From the UHGV virus genome UHGV-0084588: DNA of 64,000 bases, one strand, 5' to 3'. The notes beneath the pieces are model-generated. The model was given only the letters and a program-made list of their open reading frames with translations, did not search any database and had not been told where the DNA came from. Every line of letters begins with the position of its first letter. The stretch's first letter is position 1. Made by a program: the position numbers and the translations under genes. The DNA is from a virus. This document shows, piece by piece, positions 13,552 to 58,124 of this stretch.

Positions 13552-13594
13552 CTCCTACCCTCTAAGAGGGTAGGAGTAGCACGTTTTTTTTTTT
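13552..13594. terminator. Bidirectional intrinsic terminator between convergent genes
   Basis: CTCCTACCCTC-TAAG-AGGGTAGGAG stem-loop with A-run upstream and T11 downstream. Confidence 0.7.
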
Positions 13595-13597
13595 CGC

Positions 13598-13825
13598 TTA
13601 GTCTTTTTTGTAGACAATCGCGTTACCGTGCAGTTTGTTGTTGCCGGAAATACCGATAACTTTGAATGCGTCGCCGCCAATTTTTTCGGCTTCAGCAGCC
13701 AGTTTACCAGTTACATGATCAACGGTATCGCCGAAAGCGCTGACGTTACCGATTTTCTTAAACTCTTCTGGAATATGCTCAGCAGAAGAGAACTCTTTAA
13801 TAGACATAACAGCTCTCCATTTCAA
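13598..13825 (-). CDS. DUF1471 (YdgH/BhsA/McbA family) domain protein, no signal peptide
   Basis: 75 aa; KKIGNVSAFGDTVDHVTGKLAAEAEKIGGDAFKVIGISGNNKLHGNAIVYK matches the BhsA-type domain (recalled E. coli BhsA: ...GTISANAG...LAQKADEMGAKSFRITSVTGPNTLHGTAVIYK). GGAG RBS before the ATG; no N-terminal hydrophobic leader. Confidence 0.6.
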   Translation of the reverse strand: MKWRAVMSIKEFSSAEHIPEEFKKIGNVSAFGDTVDHVTGKLAAEAEKIGGDAFKVIGISGNNKLHGNAIVYKKD

Positions 13826-13875
13826 AAGGTTAGTGGTCTAAGACCGACGTGTGTTACAACCGAAGCATAAGATAG

Positions 13876-13895
13876 CTCCTCCCCGTAGGGAGGAG
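13876..13895. other. GC-rich stem-loop without T-tract
   Basis: CTCCTCCC-CGTA-GGGAGGAG in the intergenic region between two minus-strand genes. Confidence 0.35.
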
Positions 13896-14013
13896 TAGAG
13901 TGCGCGAAAAAAGTGGCCTGCTTAACTAAACGATGGGTTTAAGAAAAGTGTTGATAAAAAGTTTTACCAACGTCAGGTCACAATATATAAAAACAACGTA
14001 AGAAAAAGGGGAA

Positions 14014-14979
14014 TTATTGCGGAGGTGATGTCGGGCCATGTTTACCTTGGTGAATGTGAACGCTAAAGGTAATACCAGAAATAACGGCATCTTTAACCGT
14101 AAAGACACCGACGCCTTTGCCAGTACCGCCGTATTTGAAGTTCTTAGCGATTTCCAGATTACCGGTGAACATCGCTTCATTCCCTTCTTGTTTAAAGTTC
14201 GGCGTTTTAAATGTTGTCGAACTCCCTGCTTCCGTTAACCAGGTTTGTGTTTTAAACGTAACGGATTTCGCTGCTTCCGTATTGCGAACTTCGCATTTTT
14301 CATTAATTGTTTTCGTTTCCAGGTTAATAGAACGCTTTGAATAAATGAACGCATCTTCTTTGTTGATGTTCACTTTTGAAAGCATCGCATTCTCAAAACC
14401 TAAATCGTCTTCCACCGAGTTAATGTAATACTTATTCCCTTTGTGGTCAACACACTGCCACGTGCCATTTGCATTATCAAACTGAAATAACCACGCCGCT
14501 TTCTCGCCGTTCACCATACTTGTTCTTAGCGTGATATGTTTGTCAATCGTCGAGATATTCAACACATACGCATTGGACAGGTCATCCGCCATCTGGTTTT
14601 CAGGGTCAGCAGACCACGCGTAAACCGCATCCTCTAATCGCTTAACGTTAGCGAAGTTCAGATCAATCCAAAAATAAATATCGGTTTTCCCCAAACGTAA
14701 CAAGATAACGTAATCTTCTCGTTTAACGTCAGGGGAATTAATTCGGTTGGAGTTAAACTTCCACCACTTTGCTGTTATCGTGTTACCCGTCTTAATGGTT
14801 AGGTTATCTGTTGCACCAGACGTTTCATGCGTCTTTTCAGTTGCTGAAGAAACAGATTGCACCACGGTAGGGTTAGCAAAGTTGGTTTCAATTGGTATCA
14901 CTTTTACCCGATCTGTACCACGGGGTTTGTCTTCCGCGACGATACCAATTGAGAAAAAATCAACACTGGATTTCTCCAT
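14014..14979 (-). CDS. Hypothetical protein (321 aa), possibly virion-associated
   Basis: Track ORF; Thr/Asn/Lys-rich, beta-rich-looking composition; Gly-rich C-terminus (GGTGKGVGVF); no enzymatic motif. Confidence 0.5.
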   Translation of the reverse strand: MEKSSVDFFSIGIVAEDKPRGTDRVKVIPIETNFANPTVVQSVSSATEKTHETSGATDNLTIKTGNTITAKWWKFNSNRINSPDVKREDYVILLRLGKTDIYFWIDLNFANVKRLEDAVYAWSADPENQMADDLSNAYVLNISTIDKHITLRTSMVNGEKAAWLFQFDNANGTWQCVDHKGNKYYINSVEDDLGFENAMLSKVNINKEDAFIYSKRSINLETKTINEKCEVRNTEAAKSVTFKTQTWLTEAGSSTTFKTPNFKQEGNEAMFTGNLEIAKNFKYGGTGKGVGVFTVKDAVISGITFSVHIHQGKHGPTSPPQ

Positions 14980-15008
14980 CGGGACGTTCCTTAGATCGGA
15001 ATTGAATT

Positions 15009-15030
15009 CAGATATATATTACTTAAGTGA
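15009..15030 (+). promoter_or_regulatory. Promoter-like motif CAGATATATATTACTTAAGTGA
   Basis: 21 of 22 positions identical to the motif at 19359..19380 (24-nt TTCAGATATATATTACTTA(A/G)GTGA block shared); heads a 420-bp region without ORFs. Confidence 0.4.
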
Positions 15031-15286
15031 ATAGGGACTGAAGTACCAGTTCAGTCCCTACGGACACGTTTCATTCGAAACGGATTGATTAAACCATTTG
15101 GGGAGACAGATCATGTCTACTAAAAAAAGAAAGTCTCAATGAGCTGCTCAAACGTCTTAAAGACTACACTCCATTTAGTACCTTCCGATAACAGGTACTA
15201 AAATTTTACAGTCTGCCCCTTTATTCTGCTACTCGGGATACCGGTAGGGGGTAGGGGGCATTATGTATACGGATATAAATAGCGGA

Positions 15287-16732: not shown

Positions 16733-17860
16733 ATGCATATCTGTCATAACGCACCGTCGCACAAACTTTATCTTGAATTGCTTTTCGAGGACTACAAGAA
16801 AGGGGTGCCGAAAATATTACTTAGCATCCCGCCTGATACGCAAACTGAATTGTTCGGTCGCGTTTTTGGTTGTACCGTTAACGCTTTGCCAGAACCAATC
16901 TGTGCGCCTGTGGATAATTGTGTTTTCGACGAACGAATTGAGGATTTTCAATTCACCTTTTACGTAAACGATTCTTTACTGTACGATAAACTCTATGTTC
17001 GTGAGTTGAAATCAAATCAGCGGTTAATGTACCGCGTCTATCCGCCCCACAGAGGGTCGATACTAGAGTATAAAATCAGACGGCTACCTTACGAGGGTGT
17101 GAATTTACTCGACCAGCAGGATATGGCTTTTCTGGAAGAACTCTGTGGATTTGAAATTGAGAAGATTCACGTAACCCAGGAAATATCCCGAAACGTACCT
17201 AGTCGTCATACCCCTTACGGTGGGTTTCCGTACGAGTTCACCGACACAGGACTAAGGCTCGTAACCGAATTTAACGACGTAATGTATTACGCAGTGTGTA
17301 TTGAACGTAAAGTAGTGGAGAAAGAAATGACAAGTACATTGAAAGAAGAATTAGCCCAATTCATTCGTGATGTTGAAGAGAAAAGCAAGAGCGATCACAT
17401 TTTCTCACAACGTTATCCTGAACTTATTGACGAAACCACCGATAGTGTCGTCGATGGTATACGCATTTTCCCAAGTGGTCTTGCAATTTACCGACTGCCT
17501 AGTGTTAATCAGCTTAAAGTCATGGAAATGCTAAAAGACGTTTTAGCAGAAGCAGGTTGGGAATATCGTTTCGATTGCAATTTCGAAGGGATGGCGTTAT
17601 TCGTTACAAAGAAAAATTATACGTTGTCAATCGATCTGCCCAAAAGTCAATATTACAGTTTCTTCCCGAAAGCGGATGACCGCACTGAAAAAGAACCTGC
17701 GATGTTACTTGATGCGGCAGAGTCCAATACGCTAATGATACATCTGCGGACGATTGATAAAGAGTTAACTACCAGTCATTTAACGACGATCGGTAAAGAT
17801 TACGGTTGGAAATCTGTCGAACCGTATGGCAGTCAGCTACTGTTTGTTGCTGACCTCTAA
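16733..17860 (+). CDS. Hypothetical protein, tandem paralog family member with internal duplication of the GW motif
   Basis: 375 aa; two copies of the motif: ...AGWEYRFDCNFEGMALFVTKK (internal) and ...YGWKSVEPYGSQLLFVADL (C-terminal). Confidence 0.55.
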   Translation: MHICHNAPSHKLYLELLFEDYKKGVPKILLSIPPDTQTELFGRVFGCTVNALPEPICAPVDNCVFDERIEDFQFTFYVNDSLLYDKLYVRELKSNQRLMYRVYPPHRGSILEYKIRRLPYEGVNLLDQQDMAFLEELCGFEIEKIHVTQEISRNVPSRHTPYGGFPYEFTDTGLRLVTEFNDVMYYAVCIERKVVEKEMTSTLKEELAQFIRDVEEKSKSDHIFSQRYPELIDETTDSVVDGIRIFPSGLAIYRLPSVNQLKVMEMLKDVLAEAGWEYRFDCNFEGMALFVTKKNYTLSIDLPKSQYYSFFPKADDRTEKEPAMLLDAAESNTLMIHLRTIDKELTTSHLTTIGKDYGWKSVEPYGSQLLFVADL

Positions 17861-17886: not shown

Positions 17887-17909
17887 GCCGCGCTTTAGTC
17901 GCGGCTTTT
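17887..17909 (+). terminator. Weak intrinsic terminator / attenuator
   Basis: GCCGCG-CTTTAGT-CGCGGC followed by TTTTG. Confidence 0.3.
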
Positions 17910-19299: not shown

Positions 19300-19303
19300 C
19301 GTC

Positions 19304-19336
19304 GGTGGGGGTAAACCCCCACCTTTTATTTTTTGT
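19304..19336 (+). terminator. Intrinsic terminator
   Basis: GGTGGGGG-TAAA-CCCCCACC followed by TTTTATTTTTTG. Confidence 0.7.
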
Positions 19337-19358
19337 TCGTCAACATTAAAAATAATTT

Positions 19359-19380
19359 CAGATATATATTACTTAGGTGA
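19359..19380 (+). promoter_or_regulatory. Promoter-like motif CAGATATATATTACTTAGGTGA
   Basis: Directly after terminator 19304..19336 and about 50 nt upstream of the first secreted-protein gene. Confidence 0.45.
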
Positions 19381-19429
19381 GAGTTATGATTAACTCATTT
19401 ATACATTAACGCCTTAAAGGAGCAAAACA

Positions 19430-19891
19430 ATGAAATTTTTTACTTCCTTTTTAACCATCCTCTTAACGCTGGGTCTCAATACTGCACACGCAGCAATCAA
19501 TAGCTGGGAACAAATCCAGTCTCCAGACCAAGCCATCTACGAAATCGAAGACACTGAAGGCAACAGCCTCTCTATCAATTGCAGTACAGAAACCGCCAAT
19601 CGTAAATTTTACGGGCACAATGTTTGGTATTACGGAGAACCTGCAGGGGCAACAAACGCTGAGGATAACGCGCTCGATATTGTCGTAAATGGTAAAAAAT
19701 ACCGTATCCCTACCATCGACGGTAGCGACCGTTCAGAACAAGCCTGGGCGGATTTCATTAAAGCGGTCGGTGGGGCAAACCATTTTAGCTTGCTTATTAA
19801 CGATAACGTGGCAGCAGGGTTTACCGTAGAAGGCGAACGCCTTAACGAAACGTTTTTCCAGAACTGTGGACACAGCCGTCCTAACAAATAA
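19430..19891 (+). CDS. Secreted/periplasmic small protein (signal peptide)
   Basis: 153 aa; N-terminus MKFFTSFLTILLTLGLNTAHA is a classic Sec signal ending AHA; Cys present; AAAGGAG RBS; preceded by terminator plus promoter-like motif. Confidence 0.55.
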   Translation: MKFFTSFLTILLTLGLNTAHAAINSWEQIQSPDQAIYEIEDTEGNSLSINCSTETANRKFYGHNVWYYGEPAGATNAEDNALDIVVNGKKYRIPTIDGSDRSEQAWADFIKAVGGANHFSLLINDNVAAGFTVEGERLNETFFQNCGHSRPNK

Positions 19892-21642: not shown

Positions 21643-21670
21643 GGCCCCGGAATGTCCGGGGTCCTTTTTT
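21643..21670 (+). terminator. Intrinsic terminator
   Basis: CCCCGG-AATGT-CCGGGG followed by TCCTTTTTT. Confidence 0.65.
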
Positions 21671-22177: not shown

Positions 22178-22185
22178 TTAGCCCG

Positions 22186-22213
22186 GCCCCGTTTATTCGG
22201 GGCTTCTTTTTTT
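22186..22213 (+). terminator. Intrinsic terminator
   Basis: GCCCCG-TTTATT-CGGGGC followed by TTCTTTTTTT. Confidence 0.65.
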
Positions 22214-22847: not shown

Positions 22848-22890
22848 GGGAGAACCTTCGGGTTCTCCCTTCTCTGTTTTTTTTTCTTTT
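22848..22890 (+). terminator. Intrinsic terminator
   Basis: GGGAGAACC-TTCG-GGTTCTCCC followed by a long T tract. Confidence 0.7.
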
Positions 22891-22921
22891 TACACCACAC
22901 TCCGTCTTTATGGAGGTGGGT

Positions 22922-25426
22922 ATGCTAAAAGTTGAACGCATTATACTCAAAGGTTTTACGGGGATGGGATTACATGAAATTGAAACTTTCGATTTCACTA
23001 TCCAGTCTCCAACAACAATTATCCTGGGTGGGAACGGTTGCGGGAAAACCAGTCTACTGTCTGTATTCTTACCCTTAGCACCGGCTAAAACTGAATTCAG
23101 AGACGGCGGTTCTTACACGAACTACTGTTTAGTTGGTGATCAACGGTATCGATTCAAAGTTGCCCGTAAAGGTAACTCTTTGGTTTGCGATATTGAAAAT
23201 CTGACCACGGGAGCAAAGATCGTCGAGCAAGGTAATGCGAAGGTCTACAACTCCCGTGTTGAAGAAATCACGGGTATTACGAAAGAAATTAAAGAACTAT
23301 TAAATGGTGATGTTTTGTTAACCGATGCGGGAACCGAATTACGCCGTAAATGGTTTTACCGTTTAAGTACCTCTGATCTCACATACGCGTTAGGGTTTTA
23401 TCAACGTTTGCGTAAAAACCTTACCGCCTTAAATGGGGGTATTGAAATCACCAGTCGCAAGATTGCCGAATTACGGACGCGTGTTATTGAGAACGAGGAA
23501 GAACGACAACAATTAGCAACGAGATTAAAAGGTCTGGAATCGGATTTACGTGAACTGAACCGAGAAATCGAACAGTTGCCAGGATTAAATCGTGCTGTCA
23601 CGATCGAAACAATCCAAGCGTTATTAAACGGTTTGGGTCCAACCATCGACGCAATATTACAACATCGTGGTGGGTTGCCTACTGATGAACAGATACTGGT
23701 CGCCCGACAAAATGAAGCGACAGCCCGCGAAGCCGTCGTTTCTACCGAAACAGAGGTATCGATGTTGAATAAAGATTTATCGCTATTGATGGATGAGTCA
23801 ACACGACAAGACTACCTGATGCGGAATCACGAAGGTCTCAAGAATACACTGGCACGTTTACGTGAGTTACTTACCAAGTGGGACACCGAACATCTCTTTC
23901 CAGGTTTATTTAACGATAACGTTAATTTAGACCAACTTCGTGCGGCTACCGATGCGCGTGTTTGGGGACAACGGTTGGGGACAACACTGGACGCTATTCA
24001 TTCAACCGAGAAACTCAATGTTTTGGAAGAACGTCTTCTGGTGATGGATCAAAAAACCGCAGGATTACGGGATAGACTCCAGCGAGTGGAGAACGTTTTA
24101 CAGAATTTAAATCACGAGCGTAACCACTACTTAGAAACGGCAGAAGTGGATTGTCCGCAGTGTCGGTTTAAGTTTCGGCCAGGTGTTACGCGTTCTTTAC
24201 CTGAACTCGAGTCATCGATTCGTGGACAACAACAGCAGCGGACGGAACTGCAAACGCAGTTAGAGACTTTATTACGCGATCGTGTTGAATTAGAATCTGA
24301 TGTAACTTATATGCGGCAGGTTCGTGAGATTGTACTGACGTATTCAAAAGACCCTGTATTGAGCATGTTCTTTAAGCGTTTGCAAGAACGTAACGTTTTC
24401 ACAGAGTCTCGCGAGCAGTTCGGGAGTCTATGCGCAGCGTTTGACGGTGAGTTGTACTCTGCTATTGAGTACCATGAAACCCGACAACGGTTAGTGAAAG
24501 CGGAAAAAGAATGGCAGGATGCCGTGGCGGCCGTTGGTAACGTCGATGGTGCTTTACAACAAAAGATCGCCTTCCAACAGTCACGGTTAGGTAAAGCCAC
24601 AGAGATGCTCTCAATGCGTCGTAGAGAGCACGAACTGGCTAACACGACACTTACCTATCTAGTGAATGTTAAACGTGCTGTAGATGATTTCAGTGCGTTA
24701 TTCGAACGGTTAGAGAGTGATGTTAAGGTTACTTTGACAAATACGGTCGTCGAGGAGCTCTTACGAGTGCGGGAAGGGAAGCTGGATGCTTTTACAACTG
24801 CACGCGAACGTTATCGTCAGATGGAAAACGAATTGAATCAGCTCAACAGTTTGGAGCGCGAACTTACAGACTTACAAGCCCAACAGTTCAATAACAAACT
24901 GATGATTCAAGCCTTCTCGCCAGAAAAGGGTGTACTTAGAAAGTATTTTTACAACGCTATCGTTAGAATCACAGAGTTAATGACGCGTTATATCGAACAG
25001 GTCTGGACGTACCCCATGCGCGTTATGCCCTGTGATCTCACTGACGGTGATTTGGATTATACTTTTCCTGTCCAGCTAAAAACGCACCCTGAGCCTGTTC
25101 CTGACGTGCGTAAAGGGTCTAAGGCACAGCGTGCTATATTTAATCTGATGTTCAGACTGACTGCGTACAAAGCGTTGAAGTTGCATCAGTTTCCGTTGCT
25201 TTTGGATGAGCCTTCGGAAGGCATGGACGAGGAGCACCGTAATAACCTGGTCGGCTTTATTAAAACGTTAGCAAACTCGGGAGAATTTTCACAGCTGTTG
25301 GTAGTCTCCCACGAAGCCGAGGTTCATTCTAAACTTAATGAAGCATCGTACTGTGTCATCGAACCGGAAGGAGTGACATTGCCTGCGGTGTATAACGAAG
25401 GAGTAAAAATTGTTTATGCAAACTGA
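22922..25426 (+). CDS. Rad50/SbcC-like (SMC-type) ATPase
   Basis: Walker A ILGGNGCGKTSLLS near the N-terminus, long charged coiled-coil-like middle, C-terminal Walker B/D-loop LLLDEPSEGMDEEH and VVSHEAEV. ATG at 22922 after GGAGGTGGG; the track start 22910 is an alternative codon. Confidence 0.7.
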   Translation: MLKVERIILKGFTGMGLHEIETFDFTIQSPTTIILGGNGCGKTSLLSVFLPLAPAKTEFRDGGSYTNYCLVGDQRYRFKVARKGNSLVCDIENLTTGAKIVEQGNAKVYNSRVEEITGITKEIKELLNGDVLLTDAGTELRRKWFYRLSTSDLTYALGFYQRLRKNLTALNGGIEITSRKIAELRTRVIENEEERQQLATRLKGLESDLRELNREIEQLPGLNRAVTIETIQALLNGLGPTIDAILQHRGGLPTDEQILVARQNEATAREAVVSTETEVSMLNKDLSLLMDESTRQDYLMRNHEGLKNTLARLRELLTKWDTEHLFPGLFNDNVNLDQLRAATDARVWGQRLGTTLDAIHSTEKLNVLEERLLVMDQKTAGLRDRLQRVENVLQNLNHERNHYLETAEVDCPQCRFKFRPGVTRSLPELESSIRGQQQQRTELQTQLETLLRDRVELESDVTYMRQVREIVLTYSKDPVLSMFFKRLQERNVFTESREQFGSLCAAFDGELYSAIEYHETRQRLVKAEKEWQDAVAAVGNVDGALQQKIAFQQSRLGKATEMLSMRRREHELANTTLTYLVNVKRAVDDFSALFERLESDVKVTLTNTVVEELLRVREGKLDAFTTARERYRQMENELNQLNSLERELTDLQAQQFNNKLMIQAFSPEKGVLRKYFYNAIVRITELMTRYIEQVWTYPMRVMPCDLTDGDLDYTFPVQLKTHPEPVPDVRKGSKAQRAIFNLMFRLTAYKALKLHQFPLLLDEPSEGMDEEHRNNLVGFIKTLANSGEFSQLLVVSHEAEVHSKLNEASYCVIEPEGVTLPAVYNEGVKIVYAN

Positions 25427-26366: not shown

Positions 26367-26432
26367 AACAATAAAAGCTCTCTTGGCGTACCTCACTATG
26401 AGTGTGAGAAATTTACGTCAGGAGAGCTAATT

Positions 26433-26678
26433 ATGTTAAAATCGTACGGAGTGGGTGGTTTGGATACGAGTATTTGTTGGAAAGAATACGAACGTGCAAA
26501 AGCGTTCTTACAACATCCCAATGTAGGGACAATAGGTAAGGTCTGTTTCGGCAAACCTACGTTGACAGCTTGTATCCAAGGGGCTTTAGGAACGTTGCCA
26601 CCCGAAACACATTTCGAGCCTGAGGAGAATACGAATGTTCACAGAGAACCCATCAATTTACGGCATACCGTTGAATGA
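26433..26678 (+). CDS. Hypothetical protein (81 aa)
   Basis: CAGGAGAGCTAATT-ATG RBS. Confidence 0.4.
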   Translation: MLKSYGVGGLDTSICWKEYERAKAFLQHPNVGTIGKVCFGKPTLTACIQGALGTLPPETHFEPEENTNVHREPINLRHTVE

Positions 26679-27588: not shown

Positions 27589-27604
27589 ATATTATCATTA
27601 GGGC
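27586..27604 (+). promoter_or_regulatory. Promoter-like motif ATAGATATTATCATTAGGG
   Basis: AGATATTATC core shared with 37068 and 46181; immediately after the macro gene stop, upstream of the SLT gene. Confidence 0.35.
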
Positions 27605-27688
27605 ACACAACAAAGGAGTATTAGCTGTCCGCGCCGTCATTTCGTCTTACGGAATACGGAAATGTATAAATCCAACTGGAGAAACAAA

Positions 27689-28897: not shown

Positions 28898-28938
28898 TAC
28901 CCCTTACCCTTTACGGAGTAAGGGGTAATTTTATTTTC
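28898..28938 (+). terminator. Intrinsic terminator
   Basis: TACCCCTTAC ... GTAAGGGGTA 10-bp stem followed by ATTTTATTTTC. Confidence 0.6.
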
Positions 28939-28959: not shown

Positions 28960-29439
28960 ATGATAAAATTCATTTGGCGTTACCCAACACGTTTTTGGTT
29001 TGTGGTGCTTGAACTGTGTATGGTTCTTGTAGCGGTTACTTTTATCGATGCACCTGCCTCACAGTTGACCATTTTCTGTCTTTTCGTGGCAGTTCCTGTA
29101 TGGGTTATTGCGAAGGCTATTAAGTTCGCCATGGTGAGTTGGGCGAATTATACGTGTCCGTATAAACCTAGACAAATCATGAACTGGTTAATGTTTATTG
29201 AAGAACGTTTACCGGCGCAACGTAAATTACTGGGCTGGTCGTCAATGTTAGATATTGCGCTAGAAACCAATGCAAAGTTCCCCGGCGCGAAAAACCCGTA
29301 TTTGCTGTTGGCGGTAATTGTTGCGCAACAAAAACTGGTAGGCGATCGTTGGTTGCCAGAAGAAGCGAAAGCGTATATCCGTAAACATCCAAAAGCTTTT
29401 TACTCGGTAGGTCAATGGCGTAACTTACCACTATTTTAA
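28960..29439 (+). CDS. Membrane protein with two N-terminal TM helices (holin-like topology, unproven)
   Basis: 159 aa; FWFVVLELCMVLVAVTFI and IFCLFVAVPVWVIAKAI hydrophobic segments; sits downstream of the SLT gene. Confidence 0.45.
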   Translation: MIKFIWRYPTRFWFVVLELCMVLVAVTFIDAPASQLTIFCLFVAVPVWVIAKAIKFAMVSWANYTCPYKPRQIMNWLMFIEERLPAQRKLLGWSSMLDIALETNAKFPGAKNPYLLLAVIVAQQKLVGDRWLPEEAKAYIRKHPKAFYSVGQWRNLPLF

Positions 29440-30433: not shown

Positions 30434-30466
30434 CCCTACTCCTCCGGGAGTAGGGTTAATTCTTTT
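30434..30466 (+). terminator. Intrinsic terminator (CCCTACTCC family)
   Basis: CCCTACTCC-TCCG-GGAGTAGGG followed by TTAATTCTTTTT. Confidence 0.7.
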
Positions 30467-31035: not shown

Positions 31036-31045
31036 AATAAAAGCT

Positions 31046-31078
31046 ACCCTACTCCTTCTGGAGTAGGGTAATCTTTTT
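31046..31078. terminator. Bidirectional intrinsic terminator (CCCTACTCC family)
   Basis: TACCCTACTCC-TTCT-GGAGTAGGGTA with A-run upstream and T-run downstream, between convergent genes. Confidence 0.7.
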
Positions 31079-34069: not shown

Positions 34070-34111
34070 CCCTCCTGTACCCTTCGTGGTACAGGAGGGT
34101 CTTTCTTTTTA
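34070..34111 (+). terminator. Intrinsic terminator
   Basis: CCCTCCTGTACC-CTTCGT-GGTACAGGAGGG followed by TCTTTCTTTTT. Confidence 0.7.
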
Positions 34112-37074: not shown

Positions 37075-37088
37075 ATATTATCCAGGTG
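37068..37088 (+). promoter_or_regulatory. Promoter-like motif TAGATAGATATTATCCAGGTG
   Basis: AGATATTATC core; about 40 nt upstream of the ATG at 37111. Confidence 0.35.
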
Positions 37089-39411: not shown

Positions 39412-39445
39412 ACCCTAGCTTCGGCTAGGGTAACTTTATTTTTAA
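39412..39445 (+). terminator. Intrinsic terminator
   Basis: ACCCTAGC-TTCG-GCTAGGGT followed by AACTTTATTTTT. Confidence 0.65.
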
Positions 39446-40392: not shown

Positions 40393-40417
40393 GCTAAAAG
40401 TGTTTAGGAGCATTAAA

Positions 40418-41317: not shown

Positions 41318-41323
41318 ATAGTT

Positions 41324-41362
41324 TACCCCTAGACCGTGTGGTCTAGGGGTAGCTTTACTTTT
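41324..41362. terminator. Bidirectional intrinsic terminator
   Basis: ACCCCTAGACC-GTGTG-GGTCTAGGGGT followed by a long T tract, between convergent genes. Confidence 0.7.
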
Positions 41363-42531: not shown

Positions 42532-44028
42532 ATGGCAGGCCCAACTAAACAAGTTATCGGTGAAGTAATTCGTCCACGTTTTAACGTTTACACCATCATG
42601 GATCATGCCTTAGGTAACTACGAAAAAGGTGAAGATGGTTTGTACTACCTTAACGGTGGTTTTGCCCACATCATGGGTTTCGCAGGTCGCGGTAACACTT
42701 TTAAATCCACCTTGTTAGATTTCTGTATTTTCCAAATCCTGCAACGTTATAAAGCAGAGTGGGGTTCTAAGTACGATACAGAAGTGTCAGCCGCCCTCGA
42801 TCGTTTAGAAACTGGGTACATCTCTGCCATGAACGCTAACGGTATCGACGACGGAACGTCCGTACTGGAGCTTATCCACGAAGGTCGATATAACCTGGTC
42901 GGTTCTGACGTAATGCCTGGGGAACAGTATTACAGTGATTATATTCGCGATGAAGTTGAAAAACGCTTCAAGCAGTATATGTCTGGTAAAACCCGCGTAA
43001 CGCCGTTCCCCGATCCGGTTCGTCGTAAGTTAAAAGAAATCCTGGACCCCTGGCTTTATTCTATCGATTCCCTGTCAGAGTGGCATTCCAGTTCGCTGGA
43101 AGACAAACACGCAAAAACGGATATTGGGGATTCTGATCAGAACATCCTCAACGCCCACGATGCCCTGCAAAAGTCGAACATGATGAGCCGCTGGCCGTCT
43201 GCGTTTGCACGCGGTGGTTTTTACATGGGCTTCGTGGCACAGATGGCCGATGACTCTGGGAAAGCGATGGCAGGTGGCCGTCAGGCACAAAAAGCAAATG
43301 CGAAAATTCTTGACGATGCCAACGACGATTTAAAATTCGCAGGTATTCCTCGCCGTCAGCTTAGCTTTTTAACAAACTCTTTTATCGTCGCGACGAAATC
43401 AGGGGAACTGAAGAAAGACCAGAGCTATAACGCGCAGACGGGTGTTAACGAAGAACTTTATCCGACGTCACGCTCTAAGGCGATGAATGCTTCGGTAAAC
43501 GACTTGAAGATTATCACCTTTACTCAGTATCGTGCGAAGGGTGGTCACACTGGTGTGAAATTCCAGATGATCTTCTCTCAGGAAATGGGTCTGTTATATC
43601 ACCTGAGCCTGTGGCACTATTTAAGCGACACACTGAAGAAGTCAGACTTTGGTTTCACGTCAAGCGGTAGTGGCGGCTCCATCAAAGAACTGGACATTCT
43701 ACCTGGTGTGAAATTCCAACGCACGACAATCCGTGATATGATTTCTGATAACGCACGCTTACGTCGCGCTTTAGAAATCACGGCGGCAATCGCGTATATG
43801 CAAAACAACTACCATCGTCTTGAAATGAAGTATCATCTCAGCATGGGTGAGATTTACAAACTGATTGACGAGAAGTGGGACTGGAATGAAATTCTGGACA
43901 ACACGGTAGAATACTGGATGTTTAAAGACCAGGAAACCAAAGGCGGTAAACGCACACTGACTGCACGTACTATTCTGGGTATGGCTGTCGATGGACTAGA
44001 ACCGAAGTTCCTGACGAAAAAGAAATAA
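42532..44028 (+). CDS. Hypothetical protein (498 aa)
   Basis: Track ORF; imperfect P-loop-like GFAGRGNTFKST; function not assignable. Confidence 0.5.
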   Translation: MAGPTKQVIGEVIRPRFNVYTIMDHALGNYEKGEDGLYYLNGGFAHIMGFAGRGNTFKSTLLDFCIFQILQRYKAEWGSKYDTEVSAALDRLETGYISAMNANGIDDGTSVLELIHEGRYNLVGSDVMPGEQYYSDYIRDEVEKRFKQYMSGKTRVTPFPDPVRRKLKEILDPWLYSIDSLSEWHSSSLEDKHAKTDIGDSDQNILNAHDALQKSNMMSRWPSAFARGGFYMGFVAQMADDSGKAMAGGRQAQKANAKILDDANDDLKFAGIPRRQLSFLTNSFIVATKSGELKKDQSYNAQTGVNEELYPTSRSKAMNASVNDLKIITFTQYRAKGGHTGVKFQMIFSQEMGLLYHLSLWHYLSDTLKKSDFGFTSSGSGGSIKELDILPGVKFQRTTIRDMISDNARLRRALEITAAIAYMQNNYHRLEMKYHLSMGEIYKLIDEKWDWNEILDNTVEYWMFKDQETKGGKRTLTARTILGMAVDGLEPKFLTKKK

Positions 44029-44034: not shown

Positions 44035-44056
44035 TCGGGTAGGGATTACCCTACCC
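44035..44056 (+). other. Stem-loop CGGGTAGGG-ATTA-CCCTACCCG without T-tract, just upstream of an RBS
   Basis: Same GTAGGG/CCCTAC palindrome type as the terminators, but followed directly by AAGGAG and ATG at 44073. Confidence 0.35.
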
Positions 44057-44072
44057 GACCTAAGGAGTCATC

Positions 44073-44372
44073 ATGCGTTATCAAACGGAGATTGTGGAAC
44101 GCTTAAGTGAAGGATTGGCAAGTGTTAATTTAGAAACAGCGGCCGAATTTCGTGAAGCCTTCACTCTTCCGTTTCCCGATCTGGAATCCTTTTGTTTAAA
44201 GGTCGCTGAGTATTACTCGAATCTATTAGTACGTTACGGGTATGCGCCAGTACGTTCCGAACTTCCTGAAAACACGGAAGCTATCAGCTACTGGATTGAC
44301 CTGCTTGAAGCAGAAACGTTATCCAATCTACGTAAGGCGGTAGACAATGAAACTCGAACCAGCGCGGCGTAA
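44073..44372 (+). CDS. Hypothetical acidic protein (99 aa)
   Basis: AAGGAGTCATC-ATG; preceded by GGGTAGGG/CCCTACCC hairpin. Confidence 0.4.
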   Translation: MRYQTEIVERLSEGLASVNLETAAEFREAFTLPFPDLESFCLKVAEYYSNLLVRYGYAPVRSELPENTEAISYWIDLLEAETLSNLRKAVDNETRTSAA

Positions 44373-45015
44373 GAAGGCGGAAGCCTACGCCTTACAAATC
44401 TTAAAGTTGGTAGACCCTTCTGGCATTAATGCCGAAGCCGCGAAGAAAGCCTTCGCACGAATGACCGACGAACAGTTTAACCGACTTCGTAACGGTTTAC
44501 CTATTTACAACCCGGTGGGAAGTAAAGTCGAAATTGACCACCTGCGCAATATCGAGGTGTGCAAAATCCTAGGGGTAAACCTGGAGCAACGGTTGTGGCT
44601 AACAGAACCAAAAACAGGTGTTTATCACCGTACTCGTTACCCTCACTTGGTCTTACGCTTGCCTGTCCGTCGTCAGACGCAGATGCAAGAAAAGAAAATG
44701 GCGGTTGCGAAGAACGACAAAGTTCGCGATAAACTCTCCGGTCAAGTTGTCGGTCCTTCCAAAGCATCCGGGGTCTCCTTCCCAGAAGCATACATCATGT
44801 ATTCCGATGGTCACGACTGGACACTGAAAGAGTTCTTGTGGGCGCGTGGTGGTAACGACGCACTACAACGTGCTTTCTATCAGTCGCTGCGCCAAACCGG
44901 TAAAGGACGTATCGATTTGCCTGGAGCGGAGCGAACGAGTTCTAAAGCAACACGGACGTGGTCAGCGTACCTCAAAGCGATGCATATCGGTAACAACATA
45001 GGCCATCCGTCATGA
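44347..45015 (+). CDS. Hypothetical protein (222 aa)
   Basis: Track ORF overlapping the upstream gene by 26 nt. Confidence 0.45.
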   Translation: MKLEPARRKKAEAYALQILKLVDPSGINAEAAKKAFARMTDEQFNRLRNGLPIYNPVGSKVEIDHLRNIEVCKILGVNLEQRLWLTEPKTGVYHRTRYPHLVLRLPVRRQTQMQEKKMAVAKNDKVRDKLSGQVVGPSKASGVSFPEAYIMYSDGHDWTLKEFLWARGGNDALQRAFYQSLRQTGKGRIDLPGAERTSSKATRTWSAYLKAMHIGNNIGHPS

Positions 45016-46180: not shown

Positions 46181-46203
46181 CAGACAGATATTATCTACGT
46201 GAG
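46181..46203 (+). promoter_or_regulatory. Promoter-like motif CAGACAGATATTATCTACGTGAG
   Basis: AGATATTATC core in a divergent intergenic region, about 30 nt upstream of the ATG at 46224. Confidence 0.35.
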
Positions 46204-48898: not shown

Positions 48899-49720
48899 AT
48901 GTCCGAACCACAATTACTGCGTTCCGTATTAAAGAAGATCAAAAGTCAGAGCGAAGACAATCAAGCATTGGCTTTAACGCTGGGTTATCAGCCTGGCCGA
49001 AATAATCCTAATACATACGTTAGCGCGTCGAACATTGTGCTTACTCCTGATGAGCGCTTTGTTTATGTCCTATACCTTCGTCGTTTAGGCTACGTTTGTG
49101 CGTTACCCGAAAAACTCCCTTTTACCGACGGTATTAACCATCTTAATCTTTACTCTAACGGTCGTACTACCGTAGGGAAAATGATCAGTAACTTCTACGC
49201 GCAACCTGACGGTGCTAAATTCGACACAATTCACGGTCAGTTTTTAACGTTGGAAGGTTACTATCATTATTTAAGGATCGTAGACTATCTGTTCTACAAG
49301 GGTTACGGAATAAACGCGTTGGGTCGTTTGGAAACTGAATATCCAGACATTCGTTTATTACGAACCCTGACTGGGGCCGAATGTATACAACGCGGTCGGC
49401 GATTAAAGGCGAGTATCTACGGTGGCACGGATTATCGACCTGGCGAGTTTAGCAATTACGCGAACGGTGCATTTCAAAACGCATTACTGCGTAAGCTCCG
49501 ACTCTTGAAGTTTGACGGAAGTTGCTTAGGTAATGTGTTATCGTACTGCCATTCGATGGGACTACCGTTCTTGCATTACTACGTTATGAACGGTCGGGTT
49601 ATTACACCACCCCATTCAGAATGGCTTCCTAATCTGGTGGTTTCTATTGTAGAAAACATCGACTTTAACGACACAACGTTCGACATTACGAGCGTCAGTG
49701 AAAGTATGGGATTAATCTAA
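48899..49720 (+). CDS. Hypothetical protein (about 273 aa)
   Basis: ATG at 48899 after AAGAGG; track start 48878 is TTG. Confidence 0.45.
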   Translation: MSEPQLLRSVLKKIKSQSEDNQALALTLGYQPGRNNPNTYVSASNIVLTPDERFVYVLYLRRLGYVCALPEKLPFTDGINHLNLYSNGRTTVGKMISNFYAQPDGAKFDTIHGQFLTLEGYYHYLRIVDYLFYKGYGINALGRLETEYPDIRLLRTLTGAECIQRGRRLKASIYGGTDYRPGEFSNYANGAFQNALLRKLRLLKFDGSCLGNVLSYCHSMGLPFLHYYVMNGRVITPPHSEWLPNLVVSIVENIDFNDTTFDITSVSESMGLI

Positions 49721-50379
49721 TGGGATTATTCGATACCCTTGCGCAATTGGAAAAAGCGCAGGAAGAAGAGGTTATTCGCGTTGCAGGCGAATCCATTAAA
49801 CGTGAAGTGGAAAAGGAATATTGCGTTTGGGTAAAACCCACGCAAGCGGGATGGGATTGGCTACACGCACAGTCCACTAAGATGTTCATGGACATTCTCA
49901 TGCCGATAGAAGGTGGGCGTCGTCGTATCCGTATTAAAGAAGAAGGTACAGCACAGCTAACGCTTAAGCGTAAATTCCTGGACGGAAAGGTTGAAGAGAA
50001 TTCGGATATCGGTATTAGTTCTGCACTCTCTTTTTACAAGGACGGTTATTTGGCTCACCTGGTGAAACGTATCCACTTAGAACCTGGCGAATTAGCCGAT
50101 AAAGGCGCTAAGCATTGGGATATTGATATTTTCACTATCACCACCGGTCACCCTGCAATTGAAGTTTCGGCTGACTTTAACGATCTCCTCACCGAGATGC
50201 GTAGTAGTACCAGCGTCGGTGACTGGGTGAAAGTTGAACTGGAAGTCGAGCGTTACGAGATTGCGGATGTGCTGTCTGTAATTCCGTTTGAGTTTGACGG
50301 CCACATTCCGGCTACACCGAAAGATCCTGAAGATCAAGAATATCTTCGCGATTACTGGGATTCAGTTACCCGTATGTAA
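49720..50379 (+). CDS. Hypothetical protein (219 aa)
   Basis: Track ORF, start coupled to the upstream stop; terminator follows. Confidence 0.45.
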   Translation: MGLFDTLAQLEKAQEEEVIRVAGESIKREVEKEYCVWVKPTQAGWDWLHAQSTKMFMDILMPIEGGRRRIRIKEEGTAQLTLKRKFLDGKVEENSDIGISSALSFYKDGYLAHLVKRIHLEPGELADKGAKHWDIDIFTITTGHPAIEVSADFNDLLTEMRSSTSVGDWVKVELEVERYEIADVLSVIPFEFDGHIPATPKDPEDQEYLRDYWDSVTRM

Positions 50380-50384
50380 TACCT

Positions 50385-50425
50385 ACCCTACTCCTAGACA
50401 GGAGTAGGGTATTTTCATTTTTTAC
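50385..50425 (+). terminator. Intrinsic terminator (CCCTACTCC family)
   Basis: ACCCTACTCC-TAGACA-GGAGTAGGGT followed by ATTTTCATTTTTT. Confidence 0.7.
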
Positions 50426-54378: not shown

Positions 54379-54418
54379 TGGGGTGCTTATGTAGCACCCC
54401 TAATCCTTATTCTTTTTT
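54379..54418 (+). terminator. Intrinsic terminator
   Basis: GGGGTGCT-TATGT-AGCACCCC followed by a T-rich tract. Confidence 0.65.
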
Positions 54419-54441
54419 TGTTTAAACTAATGGAGTTTAAA

Positions 54442-55275
54442 ATGGGCGAACGTTTTGACATCAACACTATTTACAACATCGTAGTTAATCCTGGTCAGCA
54501 CCTGGAAGAAGTTAACGCGCAACTGCGCGCTCTGAATGAGAATTCAGTACAGTTCGACGCTATTTACACAATTGGTGTAAACCCTAGTACCAACCGTATT
54601 CGTGTAGAAGGTAAACGCCACACCGGTAATCAAGAACTGGATATTGAAACGATTGTAGCGCCTATTAAGCTTACCGATGCCGTTTATAACGGTACGGTAA
54701 TGCATACAGAATCTGTTCTAGTTTGCACGATCGCAAAATGTGTAAAACTCGTTAAAGGTTGGTCTAAAGAACGTGGTATCCTTGACAACGGTAAAGTGGA
54801 AACACAAATCACGAAGTTCTTTGAAGAGTTTGGTGAAATCGCAACAGGTATCAGTAAAAACAAACCTGAACTGATCATGGATGGTATTGGTGATGCGTTG
54901 GTGGTTCTGGTAAACATCATCGAATTAGGGGATGCGTATTCTGGTCACCTTACAGTGGCAGAAGACTGCATCGAGTCTGGTCTACGCTTAAACGTGGAAG
55001 ATGTAGCTGAAGTTGAAGAAAATTTAAACAACGCTGGATACCCACATCAACAATACCTTCGCGCTATTGAAAGTTTTGCCACAACCTTTATGGAAGGTAA
55101 AGATCATGGTTTCGATTTCGTTAGCCTGGGTTTAGCCCATCTTGCTCGTATCGCCTTGTATTATAAACTGGATATTCGTCATTGCTTCTCTTTAGCCTGG
55201 CATGAAATCAAAGACCGTAAAGGCTATCTGAACGCCGACGGCATCTTTGTAAAAGAAGCAGACTTGGCGAAATAA
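54442..55275 (+). CDS. MazG-like NTP pyrophosphohydrolase (putative), with N-terminal extension
   Basis: EEFGEIATGI...DGIGDALVVLVNIIELGD resembles the MazG EExxE...EExGD metal-binding helix pair; ATG at 54442 after GGAG. Confidence 0.45.
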   Translation: MGERFDINTIYNIVVNPGQHLEEVNAQLRALNENSVQFDAIYTIGVNPSTNRIRVEGKRHTGNQELDIETIVAPIKLTDAVYNGTVMHTESVLVCTIAKCVKLVKGWSKERGILDNGKVETQITKFFEEFGEIATGISKNKPELIMDGIGDALVVLVNIIELGDAYSGHLTVAEDCIESGLRLNVEDVAEVEENLNNAGYPHQQYLRAIESFATTFMEGKDHGFDFVSLGLAHLARIALYYKLDIRHCFSLAWHEIKDRKGYLNADGIFVKEADLAK

Positions 55276-55284
55276 ACAAAAGCA

Positions 55285-55330
55285 CCTACCTCCGAAAGGA
55301 GGTAGGTTAACTTTCTTATTTTTTTCTTTT
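55285..55330. terminator. Bidirectional intrinsic terminator
   Basis: CCTACCTCC-GAAA-GGAGGTAGG followed by a long T tract, between convergent genes. Confidence 0.7.
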
Positions 55331-55331
55331 T

Positions 55332-55895
55332 TTAAGCGCCTGGAACAATCCCAGAAGAGATATACGTTAAACCGTCAAGTTCGGTGACTTTAATCAACTT
55401 CGAAATATCCTTACCGTCGGACGGCAGCTCTGTTAAGTACACCTCCAGCCGACCTGTCCACGCCAAAGATCTCCCATTCATGATAATGATGGTTTTATCT
55501 CTGCTGTCCGGTGCAGCTGTTGGGTTCTCAACTTCGTCGTCGGTAATCTGTAAATTGTACTTGGTGCGAAAAAGCTGTAGTACCTCAGATACCGTAGCCG
55601 CACTAACACCCGCAACAGAAACTACAAAGTCACCTAAGAGGTGCTCTAGATCCAATCGACGATAAATAACATCGATTTTACCAAACGTTTTCTGTTCAAT
55701 AATTCCCTGGACGCTAAGTTGGGTATTTAATCGCGTAAATTGAGTTTCTGGTGTTTCTACCGCAGGAATATGTGACGGTGTGCCAAAATTCAACTTATCG
55801 ATTGTAATACCTTTCTCTACCAAACCAGGATTCTTTTTTACTAATAACTCATAAACCAGTTGTTTTCCTGATTTACCTAATAGCGTATTAGCCAT
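55332..55895 (-). CDS. Hypothetical protein (187 aa), probably virion-associated
   Basis: Track ORF directly downstream of the two large minus-strand genes. Confidence 0.5.
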   Translation of the reverse strand: MANTLLGKSGKQLVYELLVKKNPGLVEKGITIDKLNFGTPSHIPAVETPETQFTRLNTQLSVQGIIEQKTFGKIDVIYRRLDLEHLLGDFVVSVAGVSAATVSEVLQLFRTKYNLQITDDEVENPTAAPDSRDKTIIIMNGRSLAWTGRLEVYLTELPSDGKDISKLIKVTELDGLTYISSGIVPGA

Positions 55896-55911
55896 TATTT
55901 CCTCTCAAACA

Positions 55912-58083
55912 TTAACGTGCTTGCGGCAAGAAGATGTTCGCGATCTGGCGTGCTGGAAGCACATCAAACGCAGAGTTGATAAAGCTGCCTTGTGACCATG
56001 CAGATGCCCAGTTCTGTGCCCAAATGCTTCCTTGGATCTTAGCACGCTCTATACCGTTCGTACGCTCGTACAACGTCGCTGCACCCAAACACGCCATAAA
56101 CTCACTGAATTTATTATCGTCGTCCCAAACACCGGTGTCTGTAACGATGGGCATATACATCACACGGGACAAATCGCGGATGGTAACATTGATATCACAA
56201 GACAGTGGAACAGAATCGCCTGGCCGCCAACCTAAACCACCAACACCGAATTGTAAAGACAAAGACGTTACGATAGCATTACGGAACGAGAATCGGCCTT
56301 GTGAGTAACATTCCAAATAAAACGGATGAGTGAATGATTGTTTACCCGTCGCAATTGGACATACCGCGGCGATCCAAAAGGACAGCGGCACTAGAATTTC
56401 CTGGAAGATATCCAGGTCACTTCCCGACCACGCACGTAAAGGTATTGTCAAGTTAATATCGTCACCCGAGGCATCCGAACTGTCCCACACCTCTGGGAAG
56501 TCGATGACGGATGAGTTATATAACGACATAATCCCCGTTAAATGAAGCGTATCTGCTAACCCACGCATTACGGACTTAAAGCCTGTAATTAATGAATCGA
56601 CCGCGTTGAAGCCGGTTTGCCCGCCAGACAAGTTTACTTCAAGTTGACGAGCTTTTGCCGTCATTGAGTTAACTGTACTAGAAATCTCCGGCTCTTTTGT
56701 GGAGTTAGAGAACGAACGAGAGACGGTGTCCTTCCCATCGATTCTCCAGGTCACCCACTGAGAACCGTTGTAGATTTCGGACAGCGCCTGTGCTTTAATC
56801 CCTTCAATCTGTTCGCCAACCACTTTAACAAAGTCGCCGAAGAACGTCTCCATGGTCGATTCTTTGCCTTTATCCGCCCAGGACTGTATCGTATTCTGTT
56901 GTCCCTCGGTGAGGTTACTCGCATCGGCATTTTCCAAATCCTCATTCATTTTGTTTTGGATTTCTGCCGCCTGCGCCTCTAGGTCGCTTGCCGTTCCCCC
57001 AGTTTGTAACCCTGAACTAAACGCATCGAGAACCCCTTTCTCCAGTTCATCAACGCTGTTAATATCTTTACCCGACGCGTCTTTCGCCGCATAACCACCG
57101 CGTTCGGATGCGGCTAACCGTTCCATGTCTTGCAAAGAAACTTCGTAATTTCTCACATCGTCAGAATACGAAGCTGCGCCATATGTGCTATCCAAATAGA
57201 AATTTCGTATCCGCTCGGCGAGATCATCGTCACTTGAGGACTGCTTACGAAGCTCTTTTAAACGTTGATTCTGATAGTTCGCCAAAGTTTGATAACGGTT
57301 GATCATCTTAAAGACATCGAATTCACCGTCTTTTTTCCAAACCTCCGGCAACGCTTCAAACGCATCGTCGCGCGCTTTTTTGTTTCCTTTTCCATCGCCG
57401 TCTTGACTAACCTGGAAGGTACCTAAGATACCCGTAGGAACCAAACGACGATAAACAAGTTGCGTATTCAAGATGTTCTGTACAGCACGCAAATACAGAT
57501 GCATCGTCGGTTTAACGTAATAATAACGCGACGTTTGTTTATTCAACGCTGCCGCGAGAATGCGTGGAGTAATTAAAATTACCGCAAAAGCGACAGTACC
57601 CACCGTTGCCCATATCGCTGCCGCGCCGATATAACTTGCTATCGTACGGATCATTCCCGGATAGTCACCCGTACGCGCTAAATATGCTAAGTTGGAATCG
57701 TACATATTCGCAAAGAACGCGGCCATGCCCAGATATTTCGGCTTTCCGAAACGGCAATGTACGTAAAACGAATTTTGGTTAATACTTTCGTAATAATACG
57801 TCCCTAAGCGATAAGAAGCGGTTGGCATACCGTTAGCCAACGCCTTTTTCTCCGCCTCACGATTACCGGGTCGTGCAAATGCCCCAGTTGATGGGGGGTC
57901 TGCAAACCACGTAAACTGCGGAGGGCTATTAATCGCTTTACTACCGCCCATGGTCGTATCTTCAAAAGACATCATACCGTTAGAGTAGCGTCGCAAGGCC
58001 AGAAAACGTTCATCTCGGCCTTCCAACTCTCCCTTAAATAGATTTCTGACCCAGCTTGAGTCGTTAGCTGATCTAGCGTCCAC
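55912..58083 (-). CDS. Hypothetical protein (723 aa) with internal hydrophobic segments
   Basis: Track ORF; TM-like stretch IASYIGAAAIWATVGTVAFAVILITPRILAAAL; downstream of the giant SLT protein gene. Confidence 0.5.
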   Translation of the reverse strand: MDARSANDSSWVRNLFKGELEGRDERFLALRRYSNGMMSFEDTTMGGSKAINSPPQFTWFADPPSTGAFARPGNREAEKKALANGMPTASYRLGTYYYESINQNSFYVHCRFGKPKYLGMAAFFANMYDSNLAYLARTGDYPGMIRTIASYIGAAAIWATVGTVAFAVILITPRILAAALNKQTSRYYYVKPTMHLYLRAVQNILNTQLVYRRLVPTGILGTFQVSQDGDGKGNKKARDDAFEALPEVWKKDGEFDVFKMINRYQTLANYQNQRLKELRKQSSSDDDLAERIRNFYLDSTYGAASYSDDVRNYEVSLQDMERLAASERGGYAAKDASGKDINSVDELEKGVLDAFSSGLQTGGTASDLEAQAAEIQNKMNEDLENADASNLTEGQQNTIQSWADKGKESTMETFFGDFVKVVGEQIEGIKAQALSEIYNGSQWVTWRIDGKDTVSRSFSNSTKEPEISSTVNSMTAKARQLEVNLSGGQTGFNAVDSLITGFKSVMRGLADTLHLTGIMSLYNSSVIDFPEVWDSSDASGDDINLTIPLRAWSGSDLDIFQEILVPLSFWIAAVCPIATGKQSFTHPFYLECYSQGRFSFRNAIVTSLSLQFGVGGLGWRPGDSVPLSCDINVTIRDLSRVMYMPIVTDTGVWDDDNKFSEFMACLGAATLYERTNGIERAKIQGSIWAQNWASAWSQGSFINSAFDVLPARQIANIFLPQAR

Positions 58084-58090
58084 GTTTTAC

Positions 58091-58124
58091 CTCTAAAAAA
58101 AACGGGGGTAGTTTCCTACCCCCT
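58091..58124 (-). terminator. Intrinsic terminator downstream of the giant SLT protein gene
   Basis: GGGGGTAG-TTTC-CTACCCCC with U8 on the minus strand. Confidence 0.65.

Follow-up and report, generated by a model that had tools for sequence, protein, structure and literature searches.

The 64-kb stretch of viral DNA analyzed here at its full length (the window; UHGV virus genome UHGV-0084588) carries GC-rich hairpins in the short gaps between its genes, and many of these are built on similar palindromic stems. On the evidence of its proteins and gene order, the window is part of an SPN3US/phiEaH2-like jumbo phage. The virion protein encoded at 31704-33077 (457 aa) is 84% identical to its counterpart in Erwinia phage phiEaH2 and 78% identical to that in Salmonella phage SPN3US, gene order tracks the SPN3US genome from ~150.8 to 211 kb, and nearer uncultured relatives of ~225 kb, found among viral contigs, have 95 to 98% identity for the same protein. 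The product of gene 44347-45015 has 83% identity to SPN3US gp048, whose annotation is RNA polymerase beta subunit, and SPN3US has at least eight genes annotated as encoding split RNA polymerase subunits. Judged by these annotations, the phage would transcribe its genes with its own multisubunit RNA polymerases. Sigma-70-like promoter matches in the window fall below the shuffle expectation, and this depletion fits a phage that uses its own polymerases for transcription. We propose that the hairpins are intrinsic (factor-independent) terminators of this phage, often bidirectional, and we give this reading a probability of roughly 0.8.

The window contains 30 perfect hairpins whose stems reach 7 bp or more with four or more G/C pairs, and 19 of them lie within the ~10% that is non-coding. 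When three imperfect ones are added, the intergenic set comes to about 22. All ten hairpins named in a preliminary description of the window are present at the positions it gives, and its count of 16 hairpins with T tracts is reproduced exactly if a tract is taken as at least six T in the 12 nt downstream (16/22). Some of the hairpins that lack a T tract on the sense strand have one on the opposite strand. Intergenic hairpins have stems of 6 to 12 bp, loops mostly of 3 to 7 nt and folding energies of -10 to -23 kcal/mol, and most start 4 to 10 nt past a stop codon. Individual hairpins are listed below with their strand, (.) marking those to which no single strand is assigned; "terminator" in the list stands for a predicted terminator.

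3634..3658, (-): hairpin ACCCCTCCC-cattaca-GGGAGGGGT, 37 nt beyond the 3' end of the minus-strand gene 3696-7880, with a T-rich minus-strand tail
13552..13576, (.): hairpin CTCCTACCCTC-taa-GAGGGTAGGAG, 6 nt past the gene 12283-13545 stop codon, preceded by an A tract and followed after 7 nt by a T11 run
13876..13895, (.): hairpin CTCCTCCC-cgta-GGGAGGAG at the convergent junction of genes 13628-13870(+) and 14014-14979(-)
17887..17905, (+): short hairpin GCCGCG-ctttagt-CGCGGC with a TTTTGTT tail, downstream of gene 16733-17860
19304..19323, (+): G-first terminator GGTGGGGG-taaa-CCCCCACC with the tail TTTTATTTTTT and a promoter-like motif ~35 nt downstream at 19360
21643..21663, (+): terminator GGCCCCGGA-atg-TCCGGGGTC followed by CTTTTTT, with one sense-orientation G-U pair
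22185..22204, (+): terminator GGCCCCG-tttatt-CGGGGCT followed by TCTTTTTTT
22848..22869, (+): terminator GGGAGAACC-ttcg-GGTTCTCCC with a T-rich tail
28898..28928, (+): terminator TACCCCTTAC...GTAAGGGGTA followed by TTTTATTTT, with an alternative imperfect pairing TTACCCTTTAC/GTAAGGGGTAA that includes a G-U pair
30434..30455, (+): core terminator CCCTACTCC-tccg-GGAGTAGGG with the tail TTAATTCTTTTT, 8 nt past the gene 29493-30425 stop codon
31045..31070, (.): core bidirectional terminator TACCCTACTCC-ttct-GGAGTAGGGTA where genes 30487-31035(+) and 31077-31700(-) converge
34070..34099, (+): terminator CCCTCCTGTACC-cttcgt-GGTACAGGAGGG followed by TCTTTCTTTTT
39412..39431, (+): terminator ACCCTAGC-ttcg-GCTAGGGT with the tail AACTTTATTTTT
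41323..41352, (.): bidirectional terminator TACCCCTAGACC-gtgt-GGTCTAGGGGTA where genes 40322-41317(+) and 41363-42118(-) converge
44035..44058, (+): G-first hairpin TCGGGTAGGG-atta-CCCTACCCGA, 6 nt past the gene 42532-44028 stop codon
50384..50411, (+): core terminator TACCCTACTCCT-agac-AGGAGTAGGGTA with the tail TTTTCATTTTTT, 4 nt past the gene 49720-50379 stop codon
55284..55307, (.): bidirectional terminator ACCTACCTCC-gaaa-GGAGGTAGGT where genes 54418-55275(+) and 55332-55895(-) converge
58104..58123, (-): G-first hairpin GGGGGTAG-tttc-CTACCCCC, 8 nt beyond the 58132-63999(-) stop codon and ahead of 55912-58083(-), with the minus-strand tail GTTTTTTTT

The four convergent junctions (13876, 31045, 41323 and 55284) all have a perfect palindrome bordered by an A tract at one end and a T tract at the other. 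Because the palindromes are perfect and the tracts lie upstream and downstream in this way, these copies could terminate transcription on both strands. Terminator-like sites exceed shuffled sequence in two of three 20-kb blocks (34 versus 21.8 and 36 versus 19.5), and the third block is at the shuffle level (21 versus 21.5). The hairpin at 44035 had been described as having no T tract and sitting before a ribosome-binding site, and this is accurate: it lacks the tract on the plus strand and ends 4 nt ahead of the Shine-Dalgarno sequence of gene 44073, which is small and comes before the RNA polymerase subunit gene. The close clade retains this hairpin, with a compensatory change from TCGGGTAGGG to TAGGGTAGGG, and the orthologous SPN3US site has a different G-first hairpin, GGGCGGG-gcaa-CCCGCC, with the tail TGTTTTTT. 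The 44035 element is probably a weakened or leaky terminator, or else an RNA-stability or insulator hairpin.

Orthologous regions were compared in five genomes of the 225-kb clade, phiEaH2, SPN3US and others, and the hairpins occupy matching intergenic positions across these relatives. Within the close clade, stems diverge by 1 to 2.5%, loops by 19 to 35%, the 12 nt upstream by 15 to 16%, the T tract by 6 to 9% and the outer flanks, which are mostly coding, by 8 to 13%. The stems on either side of gene 30487-31035 are unchanged in a relative whose encoded protein is only 54% identical. At the 22848 site, relatives carry compensatory double changes in five of eight pairs, and none of the pairs is broken. 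G-U pairs are present in the sense orientation only, at 34070 and other sites, which points to selection on the coding-strand RNA. Together with the anatomy, the proximity to stop codons and the T tracts, this covariation bears out the terminator-like character that the preliminary description had attributed to the hairpins. We also considered low stem divergence as proof that the stem is read in a sequence-specific manner and rejected the argument, as any functional stem is slow to evolve because both of its arms must change together.

Orthologous sites differ in the variant that they carry. The site after the 420-aa gene (13552) reads CTCCTACCCTC in the window, CTCCTACTCCC in phiEaH2 and ChrisDB, and CCCTACTCCC in SPN3US, and the 28898 site reads CCCCTAATCC or ACCCCTACTC in relatives. 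The SPN3US orthologues are CTACCTACTCC-caag-GGAGTAGGTAG for 31045, TCCCTCTTACC-ttcg-GGTAAGAGGGA for 34070, TACCCACTCCC-gtaag-GGGAGTGGGTA for 41323 and CCCTCTCC-ttcg-GGGGAGGG for 50384.

The loops showed an additional behavior. At five or more sites, the loop is exactly reverse-complemented between relatives with the stem unchanged, in genomes whose flanking proteins are mostly 75 to 100% identical (the window against orthologous sites of L146-L156). The alternating loops are tccg/cgga at 30434 (loop 30443-30446), cgaaaa/ttttcg at 31045 (31056-31059), atta/taat and also taatc/gatta at 44035 (44045-44048), gaaa/tttc at 55284 (55294-55297), where at least two independent events occurred, and tagaca/tgtctg at 50384 (50396-50399). 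Such flips imply frequent DNA-level events within the palindromes, for which template switching or intrastrand recombination would be candidate mechanisms, and events of this kind would also maintain perfect complementarity of the arms. Minute hairpin-loop inversions have reportedly been described in chloroplast non-coding DNA by Kelchner and Wendel in 1996. The two cases are alike in that a loop between short perfect inverted repeats is reverse-complemented among close relatives; they differ in that the flips here are in phage terminators, a setting for which we found no description in the literature searched.

The stems resemble one another more than the need for a stem demands, as the preliminary description had proposed. 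The exact palindrome CCCTACTCC-N(4-6)-GGAGTAGGG is present at 30434-30455, 31047-31068 and 50386-50409, three copies where dinucleotide shuffles of the window predict 0.01. Forty-eight pairs of arms share a 5-mer, compared with a mean of 17 when the arms are shuffled internally (0 of 5000 shuffles reach 48), and no such shuffle yields three arms with a common 9-mer (P < 0.0002). A Markov model of C-first arms, a conservative null whose training included the repeats, gives P ~0.003 for the triple identity in the window; under the same model the SPN3US triple of type CCCTCTTACC, three arms with the common 9-mer CCCTCTTAC, has P ~0.05. The resemblance is beyond chance, though less striking than whole-window shuffling implies.

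Near-identity is confined to the three core copies, and ~7 of the 22 hairpins have G-first polarity. Typical 5' arms are G-poor and made of C, T and A, with the loop closed by CTCC/GGAG and TAC/GTA frequent inside. Intergenic hairpins with G-poor, C-rich 5' arms outnumber the reverse by 11 to 6 in the window and by 27 to 10 in SPN3US, whereas the polarity of genic hairpins is symmetric (11 versus 12 in SPN3US). SPN3US has 56 intergenic hairpins, 18 of them with a TTCG loop. Alignment of 37 C-first arms gave no sharp consensus, only the loop-closing C-G pair (36/37) and a weak CTCC. Given the absence of a position-specific consensus, the "family" is not one repeat but a graded pattern in which a few stems recur exactly. 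G-first and C-first hairpins did not cluster significantly along the window in a hand-computed runs test (z ~ -1.5).

Beyond the window, a scan of viral contigs found the exact core stem in 76 stretches (82 copies). Forty-five of these copies are in 24 contigs of 218 to 253 kb, at two to six per genome; SPN3US has two, phiEaH2 and Huxley have three each and the closest relative of the window has six. The loops are diverse (TTCG, GAAA, TCCG and others), a T tract usually comes next, and the SPN3US copies are at sites that are non-orthologous to those in the window. An arm-swapped control, GGAGTAGGG..CCCTACTCC, was found in 69 viral stretches, ~25 of which represent one orthologous locus in one phage group, with at most two copies per contig. 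In view of this control count, the raw viral count is uninformative, and the signal lies in the copy number per genome and the concentration in one clade. Bacterial and archaeal genomes (596 Gb) gave 70 single-copy hits in unrelated taxa, where ~52 are expected by length, and none in the Enterobacterales; the core stem is thus at chance level in bacteria and was not taken from host terminators. Rfam returned no family at threshold for the whole window, and a literature search on the stem sequence and on SPN3US terminators returned nothing relevant. In another group of jumbo-size viral contigs, of 229 to 236 kb (L007, L009, L036, L045 and L067), we observed an extended stem, CCTAC-CCCTACTCC...GGAGTAGGG-GTAGG, often with no obvious T tract.

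Terminators with a preferred stem have been mapped in other jumbo phages. In phiKZ, ONT-cappable-seq mapped 133 terminators, 61 of which have a C-rich/G-rich stem motif followed by TTAT, 5'-BCCYCCCCHWWDGGGRRGGBYTTATKYYGT-3' (PMC10914365), and a related motif is present at 59 sites in 201phi2-1 (PMC11512511). The hairpins described here share with these systems the setting, a jumbo phage with its own split multisubunit RNA polymerases and intergenic terminators that are in some cases bidirectional, as well as an anatomy in which many terminators pair a C-rich 5' arm with a G-rich 3' arm around a short loop, ahead of a T-rich tail whose first bases are TA or TTAT-like. Unlike the phiKZ CCYCCCC stem, those found here are of the CCCTACTCC, CCCTCTTACC and CCCACTCC types, are longer (9 to 12 bp) and have TAC/GTA inside. 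The pattern CCYCCCC-N3-5-GGGRRGG had no match in the window, and a relaxed phiKZ pattern fits the 3634 hairpin only. By analogy, the window hairpins would work like the phiKZ terminators without being instances of the phiKZ motif. They also resemble bacterial Rho-independent and bidirectional terminators in their GC-rich hairpin, stable tetraloops, U tract, junction A tract and placement after stop codons, and differ from these in having stem sequences common to several sites and genera, a strongly G-poor 5' arm and a stem that is at chance level in bacteria.

According to the terminator model, nascent RNA would fold into a perfect stem of 8 to 12 bp with a C-rich, G-poor 5' arm and a G-rich 3' arm, a short and often very stable loop (UUCG, GAAA or UACG) would close it, and the U-rich tract after the stem would release the polymerase. 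We infer both that RNA 3' ends form at the hairpins and which polymerase terminates there. The stems would be drawn from a restricted lineage pattern in which the base is TA..TA, the interior has TAC/GTA, CTCC/GGAG adjoins the loop and 5' arms consist of C, T and A only. Orthologous sites would inherit this pattern, with the stem changing through rare paired substitutions only, and the stem (A)CCCTACTCC/GGAGTAGGG(T) would, within these limits, recur exactly at several sites per genome across genera. Several points weigh against this reading. Termination is deduced from anatomy and from the analogy with phiKZ and 201phi2-1. The hairpins at 44035, 13876, 25688, 25725 and 54380 have no good T tract on the relevant strand, and such T-tract-poor hairpins may instead be stability, processing or 5'-untranslated-region (5'-UTR) elements. 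In addition, structure alone leaves unexplained why identical stems of 9 to 11 bp stand at non-orthologous sites (P ~0.003) and why C-first polarity is preferred.

The reason for the favored sequence pattern is likewise something that we infer, and the recurrence of identical stems could reflect convergence within a constrained pattern (supported by the drift among variants), local copying or sequence-specific reading. A coincidence among GC-rich stems of this composition is very improbable and already disfavored: the restricted alphabet does raise the number of coincidences, the SPN3US triple is marginal and the arm-swapped control has 69 hits of its own in viral contigs, but neither the stem-trained model nor the arm shuffle readily yields the window triple, the excess of shared 5-mers is large, and the core stem reaches two to six copies per genome in 24 jumbo contigs where the control reaches at most two. 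Alternatively, the stem sequence might be read, beyond its structure, by a component of the phage, such as a multisubunit RNA polymerase whose termination requires the stem, or a protein that binds or processes RNA and defines, protects or marks the 3' ends of phage mRNAs. The exact stem at non-orthologous sites across genera with loops free to vary, its chance-level frequency in bacteria, which speaks against mimicry of a host terminator, and the C-first bias of intergenic but not genic hairpins would all suit such reading. We nevertheless consider it rather unlikely, as there is no positional consensus past the loop-closing C-G pair and the weak CTCC, orthologous sites drift among variants while retaining working stems, about one-third of the terminators either have G-first polarity or show no sequence relation to the pattern, and no candidate reader protein was identified. 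ChmC, the one characterized RNA-binding protein of nucleus-forming jumbo phages (phiKZ-like Chimalliviridae), was considered as a reader and rejected, since it binds near start codons and has no motif (PMC11077065). A more specific and decidedly unlikely version is that the stem is a lineage-specific termination or 3'-end signal for the split RNA polymerases, or a 3' tag that protects or marks phage mRNAs. If it were a lineage signal, the exact stem at non-orthologous sites across genera and its absence from bacteria would be explained; a tag could act, for example, against a phage 3'-5' exoribonuclease or in handling outside a phage nucleus. Directly after the 34070 terminator, the segment 34155-36412 has genes for an Rv2179c-like 3'-5' exoribonuclease and for a protein with an RNase H domain, and 22910-25426 encodes an SbcC-like protein with an SbcD partner in SPN3US. 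Stable hairpins at 3' ends would be of use in the presence of a phage 3'-5' exoribonuclease, and nucleases of the SbcCD type act on DNA hairpins.

The remaining alternatives concern movement of the DNA itself. The preliminary description had suggested duplication of a terminator cassette, and this did not hold: the core copies have in common only the stem and the closing TA..TA, with different loops, spacers and tails, and the identical stem stands at non-orthologous sites in different genera while orthologous sites drift between variants. That drift fits a constrained pattern better than recent copying, and as the copies have no flanking sequence in common they are not parts of a larger mobile cassette. 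The further suggestion that the hairpins mark module boundaries or recombination sites found weak support, at a single locus. Gene 30487-31035 is bracketed by two identical core hairpins ~613 nt apart, an arrangement kept in five relatives, and it has only close homologues. Neither this gene nor 28960-29439 is present in phiEaH2 or SPN3US, and in SPN3US one related hairpin stands ahead of the gp064 orthologue. The hairpins might accordingly double as recombination linkers that shuffle gene modules, with the identical palindromes serving as patches of homology, bracketed genes being inserted or excised and terminators spreading along with them. A precedent is the promoter-early stem-loop (PeSL) of T4-type phages, a composite of ~100 bp with a sigma-70-like early promoter and GGGG...CCCC stems (PMC2839356, PMC4122927). 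The topology at 30487-31035 mirrors the ORFan192 case of RB49 and phi1 (PMC2839356), and in Erwinia phages and SPN3US the core stem is often part of a terminator-plus-promoter cassette. Like PeSLs, the hairpins are repeated intergenic stem-loops that would end transcription, sometimes with a phage promoter; the PeSL habit of flanking a variable ORFan missing in a relative may have a counterpart in the pair at 30434 and 31046. Unlike PeSLs, with their ~100 bp of conservation, they have a common palindrome of ~22 to 26 bp between dissimilar flanks, the core copies in the window have no adjacent promoter motif, sigma-70-like sites are depleted, and most hairpins hold conserved syntenic positions between conserved genes. 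Moreover, two other indels among close relatives involve no hairpin duplication: gene 38395-38919 is missing from one close relative, and a ~130-aa gene has been gained in another. All six homologues of 30487-31035 are at the same syntenic place where context was read, with no sign of mobility. We therefore regard the linker function as unlikely. Spread as mobile palindromes of the REP/MITE (repetitive extragenic palindrome/miniature inverted-repeat transposable element) kind, driven by a RAYT or IS200/IS605-type transposase, is scarcely credible. The dispersed multicopy pattern and the GTAG/CTAC in the palindrome, which recalls the REP tetranucleotide, are all that speak for it; the copies are single, syntenic, placed right after stop codons and equipped with T tracts, their stems are perfect rather than imperfect, and they number a handful, not hundreds. 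No match to a transposase family was found among the 19 window proteins scanned, a partial survey of the proteins in the window. The gained gene mentioned above is in the closest relative (L154:16950-17520, equivalent to window 19300-19430), where it follows the terminator-promoter cassette at 19304; it is absent from the window.

The terminator reading has several consequences. The principle of the design had precedents in phiKZ and 201phi2-1, and neither this stem family nor its spread across SPN3US-like genera was described in the literature searched; terminators with a lineage-specific sequence pattern would now extend to a second large branch of RNA polymerase-encoding jumbo phages. A perfect C-first palindrome with a UUCG-type loop and a TTCTTTTTTT-type tail could serve as an annotation rule for the ends of transcription units in SPN3US/phiEaH2-like phages, and the strong bidirectional copies are candidate compact terminators for synthetic biology.

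Other conserved elements were seen in the same intergenic regions. A promoter-like motif, (A/T-rich)TTTC-AGATAKATATTA-YCTWRGTGAG, is found just upstream of genes and always on the plus strand. Its positions in the window are as follows.

15010-15021, (+): promoter-like motif
19360-19371, (+): promoter-like motif
~27583, (+): promoter-like motif
37069-37080, (+): promoter-like motif
46182-46193, (+): promoter-like motif

SPN3US has 14 copies, all 14 on the plus strand, and both phiEaH2 and SPN3US keep the motif at orthologous sites. A phage-encoded RNA polymerase probably uses it as a promoter. The motif often lies ~35 nt past a terminator, forming a terminator-promoter cassette; in the window it accompanies the 19304 and 15032 hairpins only. 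Stem-loops stand directly downstream of the motif at 15032-15060 (TAGGGACTGAA..TTCAGTCCCTA) and ~19375-19400 (GAGAGTTA..TAACTC), with similar ones in SPN3US, and these are probably stabilizing hairpins at the 5' ends of transcripts and not terminators. At 26367-26432, a conserved long-range stem, AGCTCTCTTGGCGTA...TACGTCAGGAGAGCT, surrounds an inner hairpin together with the Shine-Dalgarno sequence of gene 26433-26678. Compensatory changes, GCTCTC to GCACTC with GAGAGC to GAGTGC, are seen in phiEaH2 and SPN3US, and the stem is possibly a translational control element. Finally, the intergenic leader at 27589-27661 is near-invariant from the window to SPN3US (aaATAGATATTAT...GGGCAC...CAAAGGAG...GCTGTCCGCGCCGT), and the proteins that flank it are just 50 to 58% identical.

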